Assembly (NCBI RefSeq): GCF_963921235.1
Contig: NC_086108.1
Coordinates: 40,798,001-40,862,000, forward strand
Origin: Mobula hypostoma
Lineage: Eukaryota
DNA length: 64,000 nt
Reading direction: 5' to 3'
The notes below the pieces were generated by a model. It was not told the origin of the DNA. It saw only the letters and a program-made list of their open reading frames with translations, and made no database searches. Positions 18,017 to 58,830 of the stretch are shown piece after piece; position 1 is the stretch's first letter, and each line of letters opens with the position of its first letter. Position numbers and translations under genes: made by a program.

Positions 18017-18248
18017 TGTGGTAAATCATATATATATGTTGTAACTGGGTTACCTGTCTGGACGAGCCCCTCTGCTGACTGCTCCTGTGGCTCCTCCCAC
18101 AGACCCCTGAATAAAGGCGATTGTGCCACTGCTCCTCCCTCAGTCCGGGACAGATACTCAGCATGGTCGCGGACTCATCTTACTGTTAATAAAAGCCTTT
18201 CAGTATTTACTCTACTTCCAGTCTTTTGGAGTAATTGATAGTGCATCA
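18017..18248 (+). repeat. 5' LTR (232 bp)
   Basis: TGTGG...CATCA; about 17 differences from the 3' LTR by manual alignment; AATAAA at 18188-18193. Confidence 0.95.
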
Positions 18249-18273
18249 ATTTTACTAACAGTAATTTTATAAC

Positions 18274-19834
18274 ATGGAACACGTCCTGAGACCCGACAAG
18301 CTAGACCTCGACCCGCAAACGCCTGAAACCAGAAACGCTTTTGAACTCTGGCTGTCCTGCTTCGAATCATACCGAGAGGAGATTGAAGTGACCAGATCCA
18401 CCGCGAAGTGCAGAGTTCTCCTCTCCAGGGTCAGTCAATGATTAGAGACCAGTCGAGTATGGTGGCGCGATGAGCACCCTAATAAGGCAATACCTGTGGT
18501 CGATAAACACCGTCTATGCGCGACATTGCTTAGCAACGCAGCAGCAGCGGCCTGGAGCGTCGAGTGCTGAGTTTGTCTGGGCCCTACAGACACTCATGCG
18601 GGCTTGCGATTGCTGGGGGCTGAGGGCTGAACAGCATGCGGAGCTCCCAGTAAGAGATGCCTTCGTCATGGGGACTAGGTCAGTGTATGTGCGCCAGCAG
18701 CTGCTGGAACACGCCAATCTTACCTTACGTTCGGTGATTGAGCTGACCGACATGCTGGAGGCCGCTCTGCACAACTCTGATGCTCCCCAGGCACGCGATC
18801 TCCCAGTGGCCTCGTGGACGCCGCAGACCCCGCAACCCACCGGTGAATCGAGAAGCACACCTGGAAACGCTGCCCAGCCCGAGAAGCTACCCGCTCCAGC
18901 TGCGGAAAGAAAGGCCACTTCACCAAGGCCTGTAAGTCCAAACCGCAAACAGGGTCGAGCAGCGCCGCCTGCGAGGCATGGGGGTCGCTATCTTGGCCGT
19001 CGCCATCTTGCCTGCACACCGCCACCATGTGCGAGACATGGGGGCGGCCACCTTGGTCAGCGCCACATCGCACCGCCTATGACCCATGGGTGCTCACGAG
19101 GCACCCCACCGCACCAGACCAAGACAGTGGCTCAACTCTGGCCTCCGTGACCCTCGACCAAAGCGCTCCCCACCAGCTCGCAAGGTCAATGATGGACATC
19201 CTGGTGGAGGGGCGCAGGGCAAGCTGTCTGTTTGACACAGGCAGCATGGAGAGTTATATCCACCCGGACATGGTGCAGCATTGCGGACTCGTGATACGGC
19301 CGGTAAGTCAGAGGGTCGCCATGGCTTCCGGGTCGCATGCAACAGACATCCGGGGGGGGGGGGGTGGATTGTGTAGCGACGCTAGTGGTGCAGGCCACAG
19401 AATATCGGGATTTTACATTTACTGGTCTTGTCTCAACTGTGTGCCCCTGTGCTATTGGGGCTTGACTTCCAGAGCCACCTGAAAAGTGTGACAATGAAGT
19501 ATGATGGGCCCCTCCCACCAATCACTGTCGTAAGTCCTCAGTTTTGTAGGAATACGTCACATACCCCGCTACTGACCACACACACACACCGACCCGCGCA
19601 TCCCACCCAACATCATGCCAACAGCCGCACTACGGACACCACTTGCGGCCTCTCCACCCTCAGGATCCCTCCCCCACCGCTGTTCGCCAACCTGACCCCC
19701 GACTGTAAACCTGTGACAACTAAAAGCAGGAGGTACAGCGTGGGGGACAGAGCTTTCATTAAGTCGGAGGTGCAGCGGCTGCTCAGGGAGGGGGTCATTG
19801 ACGCAAGCACAAGTCCTTAGAGGGCGCAGGTGAG
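18274..19834 (+). pseudogene. gag: Frameshifted gag, aspartic protease and RT N-terminus
   Basis: ATG 18274 MEHVLRPDKLDLDP..FELWLSCF; knuckle CPAREATRSSCGKKGHFTKAC (first Cys lost); protease CLFDTGS; poly-G frameshift near 19352; TAG at 19818-19820 where Trp is expected. Confidence 0.9.
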
Positions 19835-22333
19835 GTGGTGGTTGTTCGGAACGGGGAGAAGAATAGGATGGTTGTGGACTATAGCCAGACCATCAATAGG
19901 TTCACGCAGCTTGACGCGTACCCTCTACCCCGCATCGCGGACATGGTCAATCAGATAGCACAGTACAAGGTGTACTCGACCATAGACCTAAAATCCGCTT
20001 ACCATCAGCTCCCCATCTGCCGGGAGGACCACCCTTACACTGCCTTCGAGGCGGATGGCAGGCTTTATCAATTTCTGCACGTCCCCTTTGGTGTCACGAA
20101 TGGTGTGTCTGTCTTCCAGAGGGCGATGGACCGGATGGTGAACCAGTGCCAACTGAAGGCCACGTTCCCATACCTGGATAACATCACCATCTGCGGTCAC
20201 GACCAGCAGGATCACGACAACAACCTCCAAAAATTTCTCCAAGCAGCCAAAGCTTTCAATTTCACATATAACAAGGACAAGTGTGTATTTGGGACCACCC
20301 GACTTGCTATCCTTGGGTGTGTCGTGGAGAATGGAGTCATTGGCCCTGACCCCGACCGTATGCGCCCCCTGTTGGAACTCCCTCTTCCCAACACCCTCAG
20401 AGCTCTCAAAAGGTGCCTGGGCTTCTTTTCATATTACGCCCAATGGGTCTCTAACTATGCAGACAAGGCCCGCCCCCTGGTCAAGTCCACCACATTCCCC
20501 CTCTCTGCCGAGGCCCGCGCGACCTTCAACCACATAAAAGGGGACATTGCCAAAGCAGCAATGCATGCGGTGGATGAGGCCATTCCCTTCCAAGTAGAGA
20601 GTGACGCCTCCGACTTTGCGCTGGCTGCCACCCTCAACCAGGCGGGAAGACCGGTGGCGTTCTTCTCCCGTACCCTTCAAGGCCCTGAAATTCGGCACTC
20701 TGCGGTAGAGAAAGAGGCCCAGGCTATAGTGGAAGCTATTAGGCACTGGAGGCACTATCTCGCCAGCAAAAAGTTCACCCTGCTGACTGACCGGTGCTCA
20801 GTCGCATTCATGTTTAGTAACCAACAACGGGGCAAAATCAAAAATGATAAAATTCTGAAGTGGAGAATCGAACTCTCCACCTACAACTATGACATCATGT
20901 ACAGGCCTGGGAAGCTCAACGAGCCCTCCGATGCCCTATCCCGGGGAACATGCGCCAGCGCGCAGATCGACCAGCTATTTGCCCTACATGTAGACCTTTG
21001 CCACCCGGGAGTCACCCGGCTTTTCCACTTGATGAAAGCCCGGAACCTGCCTTACTCCCTTGAGGAAATCAGGATGATGACCAGGGACTGCCAAGTCTGC
21101 GCAGAGTGCAAACCGCACTTCTACCGACCCGAAAAGGCACCACTCATCAAGGCCACCCGCCCCTTTGAGCGACTGAGTGTCGACTTTAAGGACCCCCTTC
21201 CCTCCACCGGCTGCAATGTGTACTTTCTTAACATTATCGACAAGTACTCGCAGTTCCCCTTCGCCATCCCCTGCCCTGATACCACTACCACGTCAGTTAT
21301 AAAAGCCCTGCGCAAGCTCTTCACTCTGTTCGGATACCCATGCTATATCCACAGTGACAGAGGGTCCTCGTTTATGCCTGATGAGCTGCGCCAATACCTG
21401 CCGGCTAGGGGTATCGCAACTAGTAGGACCACGAGCTATAATCCCCAGGGGAATGGACAGGTAGAGAAGGAGAATGGCACGGTGTGGAAAGCCACACTCT
21501 TAGCCCTCAGGTCAAAGGGACTGCCAGTCTCTCGCTGGCAGGAAGTCCTTCCCGAGGCACTCCACTCCATCCGCTCCCTGTTATGCACAGCCACCAATGC
21601 CACCCCTCATGAGCGGCTCTTTTCTTTTCCCAGAAAGTTGACCACTGGGACGACCCTACCAACTTGGCTGACGTCCTCGGGGCCAGTGCTGCTCCGGAAA
21701 CATGTCAGGAGCAATAAATACTCCCTGATAGTCGAGAGGGTTCACTTACTGCATGCGAACCCCCAGTATGCCTATGTGGTCTTATCTGATGGGCGGGAGG
21801 ACATGGTCTCCATCCGCGAGCTGGCTCCCGCAGGAGCACCGGGCCCCTACCCTGAACACTCCATGGTGACTATTAACCCTGTACCCACTGGTATATATAC
21901 CCACGAGACACTGCGCACTCCAAGCCCTACACAGACACCACACGACACTCCCATACCGGGCGCGACGCACACGCATGAGGGATTACCGACGCCAGGCTGG
22001 AGCCAGCATAACCACTATCGCCGGTGCAATTACCACCGGTGCTACGTAGATCACAGCGACGGACTTGACCGCCTGATAGACTTGACCTGTAAATATACTT
22101 CTTGTAAATATTGTCAGTCACTTCACCCCATGGGTCTCTTTTTAAAAAGGAGGGGTGAATGTGGTAAACCATATATATATTTTGCAACTGGGTTACCTGT
22201 CTGGACGAGCCCCTCTGTTGACTGCCCCTGTGGCTCCTCCCAAGGACCCCTGAATAAAGACGATTGTGCCATTGCTCCTCCTCTCAGTCCGGGGCAGATA
22301 CTCAGCATGGTGGAGGTCACATTTTACTGTTAA
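19835..22333 (+). CDS. pol: Open pol segment: reverse transcriptase, RNase H, integrase (3' end reads through into the LTR, probably by frameshift)
   Basis: RMVVDYS, PFGVTNG, YLDN; RNase H ESDAS..EKEAQA..LLTD; HHCC HVDLCHPG..CQVC; integrase SVDF/HSDRG/GQVEKEN. Confidence 0.92.
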   Translation: MVVVRNGEKNRMVVDYSQTINRFTQLDAYPLPRIADMVNQIAQYKVYSTIDLKSAYHQLPICREDHPYTAFEADGRLYQFLHVPFGVTNGVSVFQRAMDRMVNQCQLKATFPYLDNITICGHDQQDHDNNLQKFLQAAKAFNFTYNKDKCVFGTTRLAILGCVVENGVIGPDPDRMRPLLELPLPNTLRALKRCLGFFSYYAQWVSNYADKARPLVKSTTFPLSAEARATFNHIKGDIAKAAMHAVDEAIPFQVESDASDFALAATLNQAGRPVAFFSRTLQGPEIRHSAVEKEAQAIVEAIRHWRHYLASKKFTLLTDRCSVAFMFSNQQRGKIKNDKILKWRIELSTYNYDIMYRPGKLNEPSDALSRGTCASAQIDQLFALHVDLCHPGVTRLFHLMKARNLPYSLEEIRMMTRDCQVCAECKPHFYRPEKAPLIKATRPFERLSVDFKDPLPSTGCNVYFLNIIDKYSQFPFAIPCPDTTTTSVIKALRKLFTLFGYPCYIHSDRGSSFMPDELRQYLPARGIATSRTTSYNPQGNGQVEKENGTVWKATLLALRSKGLPVSRWQEVLPEALHSIRSLLCTATNATPHERLFSFPRKLTTGTTLPTWLTSSGPVLLRKHVRSNKYSLIVERVHLLHANPQYAYVVLSDGREDMVSIRELAPAGAPGPYPEHSMVTINPVPTGIYTHETLRTPSPTQTPHDTPIPGATHTHEGLPTPGWSQHNHYRRCNYHRCYVDHSDGLDRLIDLTCKYTSCKYCQSLHPMGLFLKRRGECGKPYIYFATGLPVWTSPSVDCPCGSSQGPLNKDDCAIAPPLSPGQILSMVEVTFYC
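22144..22159 (+). other. Polypurine tract
   Basis: AAAAAGGAGGGGTGAA immediately before the 3' LTR. Confidence 0.9.
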
Positions 22334-22392
22334 TAAAAGCCTTTCCGTATTTACTCTACTTCCAGTCTTTTGGAGTAATTGATAGTGCATCA
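22160..22392 (+). repeat. 3' LTR (233 bp)
   Basis: Direct repeat of 18017-18248. Confidence 0.95.
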
Positions 22393-27563: not shown

Positions 27564-30206
27564 GAAACATAGAAACATAGAAACATAGAAAATAGGTGCA
27601 TGAGTAGGCCATTCGGCCCTTCGAGCCTGCACCTCCATTCAGTATGATCATGGCTGATCATCCAACTCAGAACCCTGTACCAGCCATCCCTCCATACCCA
27701 CTGAACCCTTTAGCCACAAGGGCCATATCTAACTCCCTCTTAAATATAGCCAATGAACTGGCCTCAACTGTTTCCTGTGGCAGAGAATTCCACAGATTCA
27801 CCACTCTCTGTGTGAAGAAGTTTTTCCTCATCTTGGTAATAAAGGCTTCCCCTTTATCCTCAAACTGTGACCTCTCGTTCTGGACTTCCCCAACATCGGG
27901 AACAATCTTCCTGCATCTAGCCTGTCCAATCCCTTTAGGGTTTTATACGTTTCAATAAGATCCCCTCTCAATCTTCTAAATTCCAAGGACTATAAGCCTA
28001 GTTGATCCAGTCTTTCATCATATGAAAGTCCTGCCATCCCAGGAATCACTCTGGTGAACCTTCTTTGTACTCCCTCTATGGCAAAGATGTCTTTTCTCAG
28101 TTTAGGGGACCAAAACTGCACACAATACTCCAGGTGTGGTCTCACTAAGGCCTTGTACAACTGCAGTAGTACCTCCCTGCTCCTGTGCTCGAATCCTCTC
28201 GCTGTAAATGCCAGCATACCATTCGCCTTTTTCACCGCCTGCTGTACCTGCATGCCCACTTTCAATGACTGGTGTATAATGACACCCAGGTCTCGTTGCA
28301 CCTCCCCTTTTCCTAATCGGCCACCATTCAGATAATAATCTGTTTTTTCCTGTTTTTGCCACCAAAGTGGATAATCTCACATTTATCCACATTAAATTGC
28401 ATCTGCCATGAATTTCCCACTCACTTAACCTATCCAAGTCACCCTGCATCCTCTTAGCATCCTCCTCACAGCTAACACTACTGCCCAGCTTCATGTCATC
28501 CGCAAACTTGGAGATGCTGCATTTACTTCCCTCATCTAAGTCATTAATGTATATTGCAAACAACTGGGGTCCCAGCACTGAGCCTTGCGGTACCCCACTA
28601 GTCACTGCCTGCCATTCTGAAAAGGTCCCGTTTATCCCCGCTCTTTGCTTCCTGTCTGCCAACCAATTCTTTATCCACATCAATACCTTACCCCCAATAC
28701 CGTGTGCTTTAAGTTTACACACTAATCTCCTGTGTAGGACCTTGTCAAAAGCCTCTTGAAAATTCAAATATACCACATCCACTGGTTCTCCCCTATCCAC
28801 TCTACTAGTTACATCCTCAAAAAATTCTATGGGATTCGTCAGACATGATTTTCCTTTCACAAATCCATGCTGACTTTATCCGATGATTTCACCGCTTTCC
28901 AAATGTGCTGTTGTCACATCTTTGATAATTCACTCTAGCATTTTCCCCACCACTGAGTCAGGCTTACCGGTCTATAATTCCTCGGTTTCTCTCTCTCTCC
29001 TTTTTTAAAAAGCAGGGTTACATTAGCCACCCTCCAATCCTCAGGAACTAGTCCAGAATCTAAAAATTTTTCAGAAGTTATCACTAATGCATCCACTATT
29101 TCTTGGGCTACTTCCTTAAGCACTCTAGGATGCAGACCATCTGGCCCTGGGGATTTATCTGCCTTTAATCCCTTCAACTTACCTAACACCACTTCCCTAC
29201 TAACATGTATTTCCCTCAGTTCCTCCATCTCACTGGACCCTCTGTCCCCTACTATTTCTGGAAGATTATTTATGTCCTCCTTAGTGAAGACAGAACCAAA
29301 GTAGTTATTCAATTGGTCTGCCATGTGCTTGCTCCCCATAATCAATTCGCCTGTTTCTGTCTGTAGGGGACCTACATTTGTCTTAACCAATCTTTTTCTT
29401 TTCACATATCTATAAAAGCTTTTACAGTCAGTTTTTATGTTCCCTGCCAGTTTTCTCTCATAATCTTTTTTCCCCTTCCTAATTAAGCCCTTTGTCCTCC
29501 TCTGCTGGACTCTGAATTTCTCCTAGTCCTCAGGTGAGCCACTTTTTCTGGCTAATTTGTATGCTTCTTCTTTGGAATTGATACTATCCCTAATTTCCCT
29601 TGTCAGCCACGGGTGCACTACCTTCCTTGATTTATTCTTTTGCCAAACTGGGATGAACAATTGTTGTAGTTCATCCATGCGATCTTTAAATGCTTGCCAT
29701 TGCATATCCACTGTCAACCCTTTAAGTGTCATTTGCCAGTCTATCTTAGCTAATTCACGTCTCATACCTTCAAAGTTACCCTTCTTTAAGTTCAGAACCT
29801 TTGTTTCTGAATTAACTACGTCACTCTCCATTTTAATGAAGAATTCCACCATATTATGGTCACTCTTACCCAAGGGGCCTCTCACGACAAGATTGCTAAT
29901 TAACCCTTCCTCATTGCTCAATACCCAGTCGAGAATAGCCTGCTCTCTAGTTGGTTCCTCGACATGTTGGTTCAAAAAAACCATCCCGCATACATTCCAA
30001 GAAATCCTCTTCCTCAGCACCCTTACCAATTTGGTTCACTCAATCTACATGTAGATTGAAGTCACCCATTATAACTGCTGTTCCTTTATTGCACACATTT
30101 CTAATTTCCTGTTTAATACCATCCCCAACCTCACTACTACTGTTAGGTGGCCTGTACACAACTCCCACCAGCGTTTTCTGCCCCTTAGTGTTATGCAGCT
30201 CTACCC
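27564..30206 (-). mobile_element. CR1/HER1-type LINE, 2.6 kb, 5'-truncated, ORF2 with few frameshifts
   Basis: (GAAACATA)n tail; APE remnant IMGDFNL..LDWVL..SDHN; KSPGPDG, NYRPVSL, GVPQGSVLGP, FADD, LVRPHLEYC. Confidence 0.97.
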
Positions 30207-49538: not shown

Positions 49539-51097
49539 TAGTTGCAAGAAAAAGTTTGTGAATCCTTTGTAGTTATCAAGTTTTCTGAGTTAATTACTCA
49601 TAAAATGCCATCTGACCTTCACCTATCACAATAATACACAAAGCAATCTGCCTAAACTAATAACACACAAACAATTGTACTTTCCATGTCTTTATTGAAA
49701 CATTGTTTCATCATTCACAGTCCAGGCTGGAACAAGTATGTGAACCCTTGTATTTAATAACTGATAAAACCTCCTTTGGTAGCAATAACCTCCACCAAAC
49801 ATTTCCTATAGTCACTGGTCAGATTTGCACAATGCCGAGGAGAAATTTTAGACCATTCCTCCATACAAAACTTTTTCAATTCTTCAGTATTTCTGGGATA
49901 TCTTGCATGAACAGGTTCTTCAGGTCTTGCCACATCATCTCAATTGGGTTAAGGTTTAGACCATGACTTGGCCATTCCAAAACATGAATTTTCTTCTTTT
50001 TAAACCATTCTGTTGTTGATTTACTCTTGTGTTTCAGATCATTGTCTTGTTGTATCATCCAATTTCTAGAAAGCTTCAGGTGGTGGACCACTATCCTGAC
50101 ATCCTCCTGTAAAATGTCTTGATACAATTTTGAATTCATTGCTCCCTCAACGATTGCAAGCTGTCCAGGCCTTGAGGTAGCAAAGCAGCCCCAAACCATG
50201 ATGCCCCTTCCCCCATGCTTCACAATTGGGATGAGGTTTTGGTGTTGGTGTGCAGTGCTCTTTTCCTCCAAACATAGCATTGTGCATTTCTGCCAAAAAG
50301 TTCAACTTCTGTCTCATCTGTCCACAGGACATTGTCCCAGAAGCTTTGTGGAACATCCACGTGGTCTTTGGCAAACTTCAGATGTGCAGCTTTTTTTTTG
50401 AGAGCAGTGATTTCTTCTGTGGTGTTCTTCCATGAACACCATTCTCGATCAATATTTTTCTTATAGGAAACACATGATCAGAGACCTTAGCAAACTCTAG
50501 ATATCTCTGCAGGTCTTTTGCTGTTACCTTTGGGTTCTTTTTCAGGATTGCATGGTGTGACCTTTGCAGGATGTCCACTCATAGGGAGAGTAGCTACAGT
50601 ACTGAATTTCCTTGATTTGTATACAATTTCTCTCACTGTGGACTGATGAACACTTAGGTTTTAGAAATGCCTTTGTTGCCTTTTCCAGCATTATGCATTT
50701 CTATAATTCTTCTTCTGAGGTCGTTTGGAAATTGTTTTGATTGAGGCATGATACACATAATCAGATCTTCCTTGAGTAGAGCAGGCTCTGACTTTGCGTG
50801 GCCTTATTATACGGCAGGGCACCTCTGCAACCCACACCTCCAAACTCATCTCATTGACTGGAACACCTGACTCCAAATAGCTTTTGTAGAAGGCATTACC
50901 CCAGAAGTTCACATACTTTTTTGAACCTAGATTGTAATTGTTTAAATGCTGTACTCAGTATTGATGAGAAGAAGTACAATTGTGTGTTTTTTTTAAGGCA
51001 GATAGTGTTTGTCTATTATTGTGGCTTAAATGAAGATCAGGCCACATTTTATGAGTAATTAACGCAGAAAACCAGATAATTGAAAAGGGTTCACAAA
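49539..51097 (-). mobile_element. Tc1-family IR/DR transposon, near full length, decayed
   Basis: ~200-bp TIRs with inner and outer gtgaaccctt direct repeats; TA at 49537-49538; the outermost right TIR bases are missing. Confidence 0.93.
49754..50749 (-). pseudogene. DD34E Tc1 transposase (frameshifted)
   Basis: MPQSKQFPNDLRRRII.., LWTDET, VKHGGRGIMVWGCF, QQDND..34 aa..NPIE. Confidence 0.93.
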
Positions 51098-53528: not shown

Positions 53529-54051
53529 ACACAAGTAAATCAATTTTAGTAAATAAATATATATTAAATAGTTACATTAAAAATAGTGCAAAAACAGAAA
53601 TAATAAAAGTGAAGTTGTGTTCATGGCTTCAATGTCCATATCAGAATCAGGTGGCAGAGGGGAAGAAATGATTCCTGAATCGCAGAGAAACCTCTAGCTT
53701 CTGTACCTCCTTCCTGATGGTAACAATGAGAAGAGGGCACGTCCTGGGTGATGGGGTTCTTTAATGATGGATGCCCCCTTTCTGAGGCTCCTCTCCTTGA
53801 AGATATCTTGAATACTATGGAGGCTAGTACTCAAGATAGGGTTGACTTATTTTACAACTTTCTGTAGCTTCTTTCGATTCTGTGCAGTAGCACCCCCACC
53901 CCACTGCACCAGAGCGTGATACAGGAGGTATATCTGTAGAAGTTTTTGAGCATCTTATGTGACAAACCAAAAACCTCCTTAAACTCCTAATGAAGTATAG
54001 CCGCTGTCTTGCCTTCTTTGTGGCTGCATCGATGTGTTGGGACCAGGTTAG

Positions 54052-55035
54052 TGTCACAAGTGCAGAGCACGGGTGGACCCAAATGCAGGACACAAACACG
54101 CTTTGCAGCATTAACAAAAATAGAGTTTATTAATAGTTACTAGGAAAGCAGGGAAGCAAGGATTGTACAGAGAGACATCAAGAATGAATGAAACAGAAGA
54201 GTGAATATGCGTGGCTGGAGTTGGGCTCAGACCCTGGATTTAGACTGAGACTCAGGGGCTGAGCTTGGCATGGGACTCGGGACCTGGACTTGGACTTGGA
54301 TTGGAACTTGGGACTTGGAACATTGGAGCCTGGACTTGGAACTCGGAATATTGGAACGCAGAGCCGGGACTCTTCCTTGTATACAGGACACAGAGTCGGG
54401 ACTCTTCCTTGGATACAGGACACAGAGTCGGGACTCTTCCTTGGACACAGGACACAGAAAACAGAACACGAAGAGACAGTTCCCCACCCAGGGTAGTGGC
54501 AAACAGCTGGACCTACCGAGCGGAGGAGAGGACACGGAGAGACAAAACCATACAATGATAGACAGTTCTTTATCTTGACACGAAATGGCTCCAAGTAGTG
54601 GCAAGCCCTCAAGGTGGCCCAGGAACTACAGACAGCGGCTCTAGCCTCACTCTGGCAGGTTAACTTGATGGACCCACTCTGGCGAGGTAGCTTAGTGGCT
54701 CGCTCAGGCGCGGTAACTTCACAGGCTGGCTCTGGTGAGGAGAGGCGACTTACTGGCACTGGCTTCGGGGAGAAGATTTGACTTGCTCCGGCAATGTGAC
54801 TTGCTCACACTTACTTCGGTAACATGAGGCGACGTTGGCTGATGGTCTAGCACCGAGTAGCTGAAAGCCAACACTATATACTGCCCTTTCAGCTGAGAAT
54901 CAAGTGCCTTTAATTACAGAGCCCAAGAAACACGGGGAAACAATGAATTAAAGGAAAACAAGGAGTCAATGGTCCTGATCGTGACACAAAGGGAATTTAA
55001 AGAGAACCAGGGAATAAATGATTGGGACCGTGATA
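54052..55035 (-). repeat. 3' LTR with three copies of a 32-bp unit (54359-54454) and GGACTT hexamer arrays
   Basis: Direct repeat of 55340-56395; unit cagagtcgggactcttccttggatacaggaca. Confidence 0.9.
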
Positions 55036-55326
55036 GTACCTCCCATCACCCCAATGGGAGCCTCCCGGCGATCTAATAGATTTGCCCGCATTATCGACAA
55101 CCTGACTGGGTGGAGGGGGTTTTGGCTGGCAGGCAATACGGGCTAAAAACACACTGAACTTCTGTAACTGTCGTCGTAATTGCACAATTTTTTTCTAAAC
55201 TGTTACCTGGGAACTTCGAGTCACTTTCTTGAATTCTATAAGTTACACTCTGGGTGGGATTCCAGTAAGGGATTCTGGCTTACAAGAGTTTGGAAAACGG
55301 TGTTTGCATCTGCTGGGTCCATATTT

Positions 55327-55337
55327 GGCTAGACCGT
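55327..55337 (-). other. Self-priming primer-binding site
   Basis: Minus-strand ACGGTCTAGCC, 2 nt from the LTR edge, is exactly complementary to LTR sequence at 56211-56201. Confidence 0.85.
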
Positions 55338-55339
55338 TC

Positions 55340-56395
55340 TGTCACAAGTGCGGAGCATGGGTGAACCCAGATGCAGGACACAAACACGTTTTGTAGCGTT
55401 AACAGAAATAATGTTTATTATTAGTTACTAGGAAAGTAGGGAAGCAAGGATTGTACAGAGAGACATCAAGGAGTGAATGAAGCGGAAGCAGGAATATGCG
55501 CGGCTGGAGTTGGGCTCGGACCCTGGACTTAGGCTGGGACTCAGGGCCTAGGCTTGGCCTGGGAACTCGGGAACTGGACTTGGACTTGGTCTTGGCCTGG
55601 GAACTTGGAACTTGAGACCTGAACTTGGATTTAGGCTTGGCCTGGGAATGCGGGACCCGGACTTGGACTTGGGCTTGGCCTGGGAACTGGGGACCCGGAC
55701 TTGGACTTGGATTAGAACTTGGAACTCGAAACATTGGAGCCTGGACTTGGAACTTGGAACATTGGAACACAGAGCCGGAACTCTTCTTGGACACAGGACA
55801 CAGAGCACAGAACACGAAGATACAGTTCCACACTGAGGGTAGTGGCAAACAGCCAGACCTACCGAGCGGAGGAGAGGACACGGAGAGACAAAACTACACA
55901 ATGATAGACAGTTCTTTATCTTGACACAAAATGGCTCCAAGTAGTGACAAGCCCTCGACGAGGCCCGGAAACTACAGACAGCGGCTCTAACCTCACTCCG
56001 GTGGGTTAACTTGACGGACCCGCTCCGGCGAGGTAGCTTAGCGGCTCGCTCAGGCGAGGTAACTTCACAGGCTGGCTCTGTTGAGGGGAGGCGACTTACT
56101 GGCACTCACTTCGGGGAGAAGACTTGACTTGCTCCGGCGATGTGACTTGGCTCGCTCCGGCAAGATGACTTGCTCGTACTTGCTTCGGTGATGTGAGGTG
56201 ACGGTCTAGCCCCAGGCAGCTGTAAGCCCGACACTATATACTGACCGTTCAGCTGAGAATCAAGTGCCTTTAATTACAGAGCCCAAGAAACACAGGGAAA
56301 CAATGAATTAAAGGAAAACAAGGAGTCAATGGTCCCGATAGTGACACAAAGGAAATTTGAAGGAAACCAGGCAATAACCAATCGGAACCGTGACA
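55340..56395 (-). repeat. 5' LTR with an expanded GGACTT/GGCCTG array and a TATA box at 56240-56235
   Basis: Direct repeat of 54052-55035. Confidence 0.9.
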
Positions 56396-56559
56396 GTTAG
56401 ATCCTCAGAGACCTTGGTAGCCAGGAACTTGAAACTGCTCTCTTTCCACTTCTGATCCCTCTATGGGGATTGGTTCATGTTCCCTTGTCATCGGTCTCTG
56501 AAGTCCACAGTCAGCTCTTTGGTCTCATTGACATTGAGTGCCAGACCATAGCCCTCCAT

Positions 56560-58830
56560 GCATCTCTTGTCTAAATACCTATCCAAACTTCTCTTAAATG
56601 TTGCAATTGAACTTGAATCTACCATTTTTACTGACAACCTTTTCCACACTCACACTACCCTCTGAGTGAATAAGTCCCACCTCAGATGCCCTTTAAATAA
56701 TTCACCTTTCACCTTAATCCTAAGTCCTTGAGTTGTAGTGTCATACAACCTGAGGGGAAAAGCCTGCAAGCATTCACCATATCTTTAACCCTCATAATTT
56801 TGTGTATCTCTATAAGATCTCCCCTCATTCTCCTACACTCCAGGGAGTAAAGTCCTAACCTATTCAACCTTTTGCTATAACTAGGTCCTCAAGTCCATAA
56901 GACCATAAGACCATAAGACAAAGGAGCAGAAATAGATCATTCGGCCCATCGAGTCTGCTCCGCCATTTTATCATGAGCTGATCCATTTTATCCTATTTAG
57001 TCCCACTGCCCCGCCTCCTCACCATAACCTTTGATGCCCTGGCTACTCAGATACCTATCAATCTCTGCCTTAAATACACCCAATGACTTAGCCTCCACTG
57101 CTGCCCGTGGCAACAAATTCTATAGATTCACCACCCTCTGACTAAAAAAATTTCTTCGCATTTCTGTTCTGAAAGGACGCCCTTCAATCCTGAAGTCATG
57201 CCCTTTCGTACTAGACTCCCCCATCATGGGGAACAACTTTGCCACATCCACTCTGTCAATGCCTTTTAACATTTAACAAGTCCTGGCAACATCTATGTAA
57301 AGATTCTCTAAGCTCTATCATACTCATTGATAACTTTCCTGTAGGTAAGTGACCAGAACTACACATAATACTCCAAATTTGGCCTCACCAAAGTCTTACA
57401 CATCTTCACATAATTTCCCATTTATGAAGGTCATTGTGTGAACAACTCTCATTATGACTTGAGTTGCCATTTTCAAGGAAGTGTTTGTCTATACCCAGAT
57501 CCCTTTGTTCTACCACACACCTCAGTGCCCCACCATTCACTATATGTCTAACCCTGTTTTATCCTGCCAAAGTGTAACACCTCACAGATCTTTGTCATTT
57601 TTTCAGCCCATTTTTCCAGTTGGTCCATATTACACTGCAAGCTTTATTAGCCCTCCTTGGTGTCAACTACATCCCCAGTCATGATATCATCCACAAATTA
57701 GCTGATGCAGTTCACCACATTATCATCCACTGGTTGGCTGCCATTAACTAGAGGTGTTTGCAAGGGTCGGTGTTGGAACCACATCTTTTCACATTATATG
57801 ACAATGATCTGGATGACAGAATTGATAGATTTGTGGGCAAATTTGTGGATGATATAAAGATAGATGGAGATGCAGGTGGGTTGAGGAAGCAGGGATTCTG
57901 CAAAAGGATTTGGACAGATTAGGAGAATAGGCAGAGTTGCAGATGGGATACATTGTAGGGAAATGTATGGTCGTGCACTTTGATAGAAGTAATAAAAGAT
58001 TAAACTGTTTTCCAAACTGGGGGGGTGGGGTAGGCGGAAATTTGGAAATCAGGGGTGCAAAGGTACTTTGCTGGATTCCTTGAGCAGGGTTCCCTAAAGG
58101 TTAACTTGCTGTTTGAGGAAGGCAAATTCATTGTTAATGTTCCTTTCGAGAGGACTGGAATATAAAAGCAAGGATGTAAAGCTGAGGCATTATAGGACAT
58201 TAGTCAGACTGCCTTTGGAGTATAGTGAGCAGTTTTGGGCTCCTTAGCTAAGAGAGCATGTGCTAGAATTGGTAAGGGTCTAGAGGAGTTTTATGAGAAT
58301 GATTCCGGGAATGAAAGAGTTAATGTATGAGAGAATTTGATAGCTTTGGGCCTGTACTCACTGGGGTTTAGAAGAATGAGGGGGGATATCATTGCAACTT
58401 ATTGAATGTTGGAAGGCCAAACAGAGTGAATGTAGACCAAATATTTCCCATAGTAGGGGAACGTAGGACCAGAGGGCACAGCCTCAGAATAAAAGGACAT
58501 TCATTTGGAACAGAGTTGAGGAAGAATTTCTTTAGCCAGAGAGTGATGAATCTGTGGAATTCAATGCACAGATGGCTGTGGAGGCCAAGTAATTTGGTAT
58601 ATTTAAAGCAGAGGTTGATAGATTCCTATTTAGAAGCCAACAGGGAGAAGGCAGGAGAATGAGTTTGAGAGGGATAGTAAATCAGCTCTGATGGAATGGT
58701 GGAGCAGACTCAATGGGCCAAGTGGACTAATTTTACTCCTTTGTCTTATGGTCTTAAGTCCTTCTCCCACTAAGCCAATGCTGAATCCAATTAACTACTT
58801 CATCCTGAATACCAAACAACTTAACCTTCG
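56560..58830 (-). mobile_element. Old CR1 (minus) containing two nested CR1 insertions
   Basis: Host pieces at 56560-56895, 57277-57729 and 58757-58830; nested young minus copy at 56896-57276 with an (AAGACCAT)n tail. Confidence 0.75.
57730..58755 (+). mobile_element. CR1 RT-to-tail fragment nested in the opposite orientation
   Basis: QGSVL, KFVDDIKI, LVRLPLEY, RTRGHSLRIKG..FFSQRVMNLWN; gtcttatggtctt tail. Confidence 0.9.

Follow-up and report, generated by a model that had tools for sequence, protein, structure and literature searches.

An old, internally deleted LTR element with sushi-group anatomy and a predicted self-primer in Mobula hypostoma

Self-priming is described as common to the Tf1/sushi retrotransposons of fungi and vertebrates alike in the portions of the literature available to us (PMC10085805, PMC6317226, PMC4600332). 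According to these excerpts, Tf1 self-priming needs three duplexes, the 'pretzel', which is common to other Tf1/sushi elements (PMC10085805); the three-duplex pretzel and self-priming are given as group features (PMC10085805, PMC6317226), and self-priming itself is presented as demonstrated in Tf1, whereas in the vertebrate sushi elements it is implicated or predicted (PMC10085805, PMC4600332). The Sushi LTR model, as far as the accessible text of its description goes, has TGTYANR/CNTNACA ends, an AATAAA near the 3' end and a mean LTR of 572 nt in its training set (PMC3601003). TRIMs, a non-autonomous class, are defined in the corresponding excerpt by a length of less than 1,000 bp, repeats of 100-250 bp and a tRNA-type primer-binding site (PBS) (PMC6934838).

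The element studied here lies on the minus strand of a 64-kb stretch of Mobula hypostoma contig NC_086108.1 (the window; all coordinates refer to it), in which inspection of the sequence reveals a complete LTR element of 2,344 bp between target-site duplications (TSDs), 56395-54052. Both 5-bp TSD copies, GTTAG on the plus strand and CTAAC on the minus strand, are identical (56396-56400 upstream, 54047-54051 downstream), and the duplication is thus intact, as an earlier sequence-only reading of the locus had it; the LTR edges, the 304-bp interior, the TATATAG and the two 11-mers located by that reading were likewise all correct on re-inspection. The 5' LTR (55340-56395, minus strand, 1,056 nt) has TG...CA ends, the 3' LTR (54052-55035, minus strand, 984 nt) begins with TA and not TG, and the two enclose an interior of 304 nt (55036-55339, minus strand). 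The termini, TGTCACG...TGTGACA, depart from the Sushi model at one position of the 3' motif, and an AATAAA (55414-55419, minus strand) stands 80 nt ahead of the 5' LTR end. TATATA occurs once per LTR: in the 5' LTR it forms the TATATAG at 56234-56240 (minus strand), and in the 3' LTR the landmarks on the same strand are a TATA at 54880, a copy of the primer site at 54852-54842 (9 of 11 letters matching) and an AATAAA at 54131. The PBS (55327-55337, minus strand) begins 2 nt past the 5' LTR end and its first letters are not TGG; no TGG, the mark of a tRNA-type PBS, follows the LTR.

Much the same layout is found in the vertebrate Tf1/sushi chromoviruses (sushi-ichi, Amn-ichi; the GyDB V-clade), which in the partial descriptions to hand have TG...CA LTRs, TGTCAC/GTGACA ends and a late AATAAA, and which also share with this element a PBS complementary to the own LTR and not to a tRNA end, a 5-bp TSD, a gag start reading MDPA and a pol tail of the kind seen in the chromoviruses L021 and L047 (metagenome loci, see below). 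The element here has its LTRs, PBS, purine tract (PPT) and TSD; unlike them, it lacks RT/IN coding capacity: no RT, RNase H or integrase coding and no chromodomain remains. Its LTRs are about 1 kb long, versus the mean of 572 nt in the sushi training set as excerpted (PMC3601003). To go by the same partial sources, it resembles Tf1/Tf2 of Schizosaccharomyces pombe and Tj1 of S. japonicus in having a PBS, immediately downstream of the 5' LTR, to which the RNA 5' end is complementary, and in the flanking duplexes of the pretzel (PMC10085805, PMC4600332); Tf1, however, is autonomous and experimentally proven, whereas the element here is defective, probably has a 10-nt primer and is known from sequence alone. 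Like TRIMs, it is non-autonomous, and its short interior is bounded by PBS and purine tract. The term 'miniature', which the sequence-only reading had applied to it, nevertheless does not, in the TRIM sense, suit an element of 2,344 bp with LTRs of 1,056 and 984 nt, and in contrast to TRIMs, as the excerpted definition has them, it carries 1-kb LTRs, a self-complementary PBS and recognisable gag and pol remnants. We regard the element as most likely a sushi derivative, with the 53-nt pol tail as its only part that aligns with chromodomain-bearing relatives.

The interior opens with a gag start of 28 codons (MDPADANTVFQTLVSQNPLLESH..., 55236-55322, minus strand), then a stop. Scored against a profile of the gag starts of 11 relatives, these codons reach 12.0 bits over 30 positions, a value that is partly circular as MDPA formed part of the search pattern. 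The decayed middle of the interior (55089-55235, minus strand) is probably further gag 5' sequence, and a second interior frame gives a weak 1.1-bit hint of it. The last 53 nt (55036-55088, minus strand), which hold the purine tract at 55052-55039 and correspond to pol downstream of the chromodomain, match the pol end of L021, purine tract included, at a score that 0 of 300 shuffles reach, and likewise that of L039 at a score that 1 of 300 reaches, in a comparison of 10 segments of which 4 were non-pol chance motifs. We read the interior as what is probably a gag 5' remnant joined to a pol 3' tail, with everything from protease to chromodomain missing and the deletion junction probably near 55090. 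The MDPA gag start, stops and purine tract had already been picked out in the letters; to call the element a parasite made of cis-signals only, as was done on the same occasion, was an overstatement given these two decayed coding pieces. For a proline-rich resemblance to an integrase linker the shuffle counts were 6 and 15 of 300; it is weak and not claimed. Pfam returned 0 families on two interior pieces, the gag-start frame had 0 matches at E 0.001 among 1.84 billion proteins, and word-based (weak) protein searches for a helper with each interior frame gave no match; an autonomous partner was not found in these protein searches with the interior frames.

The 11 letters GGCTAGACCGT at 56211-56201 complement 55337-55327 exactly, and the 64-kb window contains no second instance of this pair. 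Complementarity could in principle arise by chance, a 1-kb LTR offering many sites. Among 20,000 first-order resamples of the LTR, however, with offsets 0-4 allowed, an exact 11-nt complement appeared in 9, and an exact 10-nt complement in 44 (same resampling, five offsets); the TATA spacing is correct, and the same register recurs in nine relatives. Given the resampling and the shared register, chance complementarity is very unlikely, and we leave it next to no weight. The sequence-only reading had put forward an exact 11-nt self-priming duplex. Exact it is in the 5' LTR; its working length, on the comparison of sequences, is likely 10 nt from 56210 (predicted primer 56201-56210, minus strand, with a putative RNA start at its first base), because the 11th pair, formed by 56211 at PBS +13, occurs in this 5' LTR only and is missing in the element's own 3' LTR and in all 9 perfect-match relatives, where pairing ends at PBS +12. 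This 11th pair is probably incidental. The Tf1 primer is 11 nt long, and the agreement with that length is probably incidental as well.

Relatives were sought in metagenome contigs with a pattern that combined the U5 motif, the LTR end and the gag start, the PBS being left as N. Nine of the 30 loci obtained were dropped by eye as not sushi-like (L019, L020, L026, L029, L032, L037, L038, L040, L042), and three of the 21 sushi-like loci had too little upstream DNA (L021, L025, L045), leaving 18 that could be assessed. A 10/10 complement of the own PBS +3 to +12 is present in 9 of the 18 (L023, L028, L030, L031, L034, L035, L039, L043, L047), with 8 distinct PBS sequences among these nine; L041 pairs in full if two G-U pairs are counted, pairing in L022 and L044 is 9/10, and a convincing self-complement site is absent in 6 of the 18, one of which, L018, is incomplete. 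Covariation of the two sites across subfamilies had been suggested as a check by the sequence-only reading, and it was followed across the families of these relatives: 7 of the 10 primer/PBS columns vary with the pair kept (8 families and the window element), a count over rows picked for having a match, in which the informative part is the 9/18 rate and the differing sequences. Sites and PBSs taken from different families pair at just 4-9/10. Conservation of MDPA and of the U5 motif in the relatives is not independent, both having been forced by the search pattern. A TATA-like sequence starts 29-31 nt ahead of the primer site in 6 of the 9 relatives, and the TATATAG of the window element starts 30 nt ahead of 56210. 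Within this element's own family, no variant inside primer or PBS is found among the 40 listed out of 368. The Tf1/sushi-type geometry first suspected from the letters alone is backed by relatives with an identical register and compensated letters, together with a second pretzel stem (see below). Self-priming is in any case the expected default for the sushi group and no surprise.

One of these loci, L047, encodes gag together with a pol that includes protease, RT, RNase H, integrase and Chromo, that is, a full chromovirus sharing this layout, and its domain content ties the self-priming layout to chromoviruses. The metagenome loci are probably vertebrate DNA inside the assemblies. Seven of them (L023, L025, L027, L033, L035, L041, L043) have a sushi LTR end and MDPA followed by frames unlike the gag of L018, L034 and L047; several of the seven share an LFEYF or FEGTRLA motif, and some are repeat-rich. 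Judging by their sequences, the three in this unlike-gag set that have perfect self-complements, L023, L035 and L043, may be further non-autonomous self-priming families. A pattern scan on viral contigs gave 17 loci, none with a self-complement longer than 7 nt, and these were set aside as chance matches.

The sole unusual trait of the window element is the distance from primer to LTR end: 871 nt, versus 150-339 nt in the nine relatives (2.6-5.8 times). Tandem arrays with periods of 6-7, 35, 38 and 83 nt (55549-55776, minus strand), within the predicted R region, account for part of this long loop and for part of the LTR length difference. In the second pretzel stem, U5 (55392-55362, minus strand) pairs with the stretch that follows the PBS and takes in the first gag codons (z -3.13, 1/200 shuffles); its -31.9 kcal/mol stands against -20.9 for the strongest of 955 other LTR windows, and with the 3' LTR arm the stem reaches -35.9 kcal/mol. 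Its downstream arm (55294-55321, minus strand) overlaps these first codons, and such a pretzel role may explain the strong conservation of MDPA in the sushi group. The third duplex, at the LTR end, is weak at -14.1 kcal/mol, a value without a control (relatives -3.2 to -14.7), and a short helix corresponding to it is seen in the 942-nt fold.

Nested folding of a 941-nt RNA gives the primer duplex a pair probability of 0.78-0.95 (0.82-0.99 with the start at 56211), which falls to 0.09 at 1,011 nt and to 0.0 at 1,175 nt; in these longer folds the U5/gag stem forms with the primer mostly unpaired, and forcing the primer duplex costs 1.1 kcal/mol (1,011 nt) and 10.6 kcal/mol (1,175 nt). The primer duplex and the U5/gag helix cross, an arrangement of which ViennaRNA nested folding cannot hold both parts, so the fold numbers neither prove nor refute the primer duplex. 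In stability the 942-nt RNA does not stand out from its shuffles (13 of 20 are as good), and Rfam returned 0 matches at E 1. The long span and the loss of the primer duplex in longer nested folds would also fit a real family in which the 870-nt pairing is vestigial, priming being taken over by a nearer transcription start, by a tRNA fragment or, in trans, by the freed primer of a helper RNA; half-tRNA priming exists in other LTR groups, according to the part of PMC6317226 on which we draw. Such a family would, however, have kept a single TATATA per LTR at 30 nt from the complementary site, as in the relatives, with a PBS that does not begin with TGG, and both its LTRs would have preserved 9-11 of the 11 matches despite about 12% divergence. 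Vestigial pairing appears to us quite improbable, and we retain self-priming across the long loop as the working model.

The copy is old and decayed. Its LTRs are 87.4% identical (K2P 0.139, or 0.118 outside the tandem arrays, where 21 of 85 mismatches are CpG transitions), and a 10-nt indel adjoins the primer-site copy of the 3' LTR, which matches at 9/11. One frame is stop-free in both LTRs (55548-56105 and 54178-54804, minus strand; 185 and 208 codons) and has no start codon. It was rejected as a gene: 20 non-synonymous versus 4 synonymous codon changes over 106 codons compared look neutral. Pfam gave 0 families for three stop-free LTR frames.

Part of the element is present in 18 of 24 listed sequencing runs, among which no RNA run appears; the best-matching run may derive from the same source as the window. 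When contigs of 4 runs, from four organisms, were aligned on 55000-56600 at 80% likeness, all 30 bins of this interval were covered in 4/4 runs, and a listed variant at 55066 was shown by 7, 10, 20 and 7 contigs, respectively. In particular, two pieces of X5 that are about 85-87% alike to the window element (piece 17, 55000-55241, with 35 other letters; piece 18, 55107-55396, with 37) overlap, and together they run from the start of the 3' LTR to the end of the 5' LTR. Because X5 holds a near-identical piece too (99%, 3 of 284 letters differing, inside the LTR), these divergent pieces are probably paralogues, i.e. other copies. Three pieces of X8 (25-27) cover 55010-55277 with 22-29 other letters each; the probable junction is bridged with at least 31 letters on each side by X5 piece 17 and X8 pieces 25 and 26, and in X1 a single contig connects 56344 with 55132, the arrangement expected where a 3' LTR adjoins this interior.

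These contigs bear on the possibility that a full-length sushi element suffered a one-off deletion, either in the course of reverse transcription or post-insertion, and that the product inherited the self-priming signals without ever being mobile as a short unit. Such an origin would fit with the observation that no second whole copy with its own flanks is seen among the contig pieces listed, and that none of the contigs listed (32 of 21,621 pieces, 15 of 104 joints) extends by itself over the entire interior between PBS and purine tract. Summed depth, which is no copy number, is 369-929 at the gag start (55270-55323) versus 64-430 at 55054-55107; the higher depth hints at longer relatives, as a one-off deletion would lead one to expect if they share the 5' part only. 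A unique deletion would, however, give no contigs of about 85% likeness across the junction, and both the divergent pieces that bridge it and the X1 contig that links the LTR start to 55132 speak against one; we think it unlikely. A mobile non-autonomous short family is likely on these alignments, if not proven. As to whether many copies share the short interior, a check that the sequence-only reading had proposed, contigs of about 85% likeness do tile the interior in other species, with no second whole copy among the pieces listed. The loose contig ends listed (24 of 1,740) all fall in the flanking repeat and say nothing on the junction. At 56400-56570 the element lies in or beside a very abundant host repeat, with a summed depth above 100,000 at 56404-56511 in all four runs.

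The window holds other mobile-element sequences. A second, unrelated Gypsy element (18017-22392, plus strand) has LTRs of about 232 nt that are 93-94% alike, with TGAGG on both sides, and encodes protease, RT, RNase H and integrase, with no Chromo match in Pfam. No TGG follows its 5' LTR, and 18250-18264 pairs at 14/15 with 18180-18194 across an AATAAA. It is unlikely as a helper, and Troyka as a label for it was rejected on its termini. Broken LINE reverse-transcriptase-like frames at 27990-30035 (minus strand) are, we assume from their motifs, of CR1 type, and a transposase-like fragment at 49876-50301 (minus strand) is presumably Tc1/mariner, again by motifs.

Our preferred reading, in which we have good confidence, is that of an old, internally deleted copy with sushi anatomy, likely from a non-autonomous family copied by a helper and predicted to self-prime with about 10 bases of its own RNA. 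Transcription would start at about 56210. Two helices would form, one joining the RNA 5' end to the PBS over a distance of about 860 nt and the other joining U5 to the first codons of gag, and their crossing would give the pretzel. The RT/RNase H of a helper would then cut the primer free, as RT/RNase H does in Tf1, and synthesis from the freed primer would run over the 2-nt spacer into U5 and on into R; plus-strand synthesis would be primed by the purine tract, the integrase of the helper would insert the cDNA with a 5-bp duplication, and the present copy would have decayed after insertion. For a more specific proposal, namely that a non-autonomous sushi family of several related cartilaginous-fish species spread in trans with the pretzel closing across about 860 nt of R, the case for and the case against seem to us evenly balanced.

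A search of titles and abstract openings in the openly available full-text literature gave no paper on cartilaginous fish with a non-autonomous sushi family that primes itself, and a prior Repbase or Dfam entry is quite possible. Most likely no new mechanism is involved, self-priming and internally deleted LTR derivatives both being known already; with a known mechanism and an old, decayed copy, the gain is therefore incremental. The compensated PBS and primer letters over eight families provide clean comparative support for self-priming in vertebrates. If the proposal for this family is true, Tf1-type self-priming would tolerate very long loops in a vertebrate and would be processable by the enzymes of another element: the spread of a gene-less family carrying this primer site would mean that the RNA structure works in trans, and its long loop would set an upper range.
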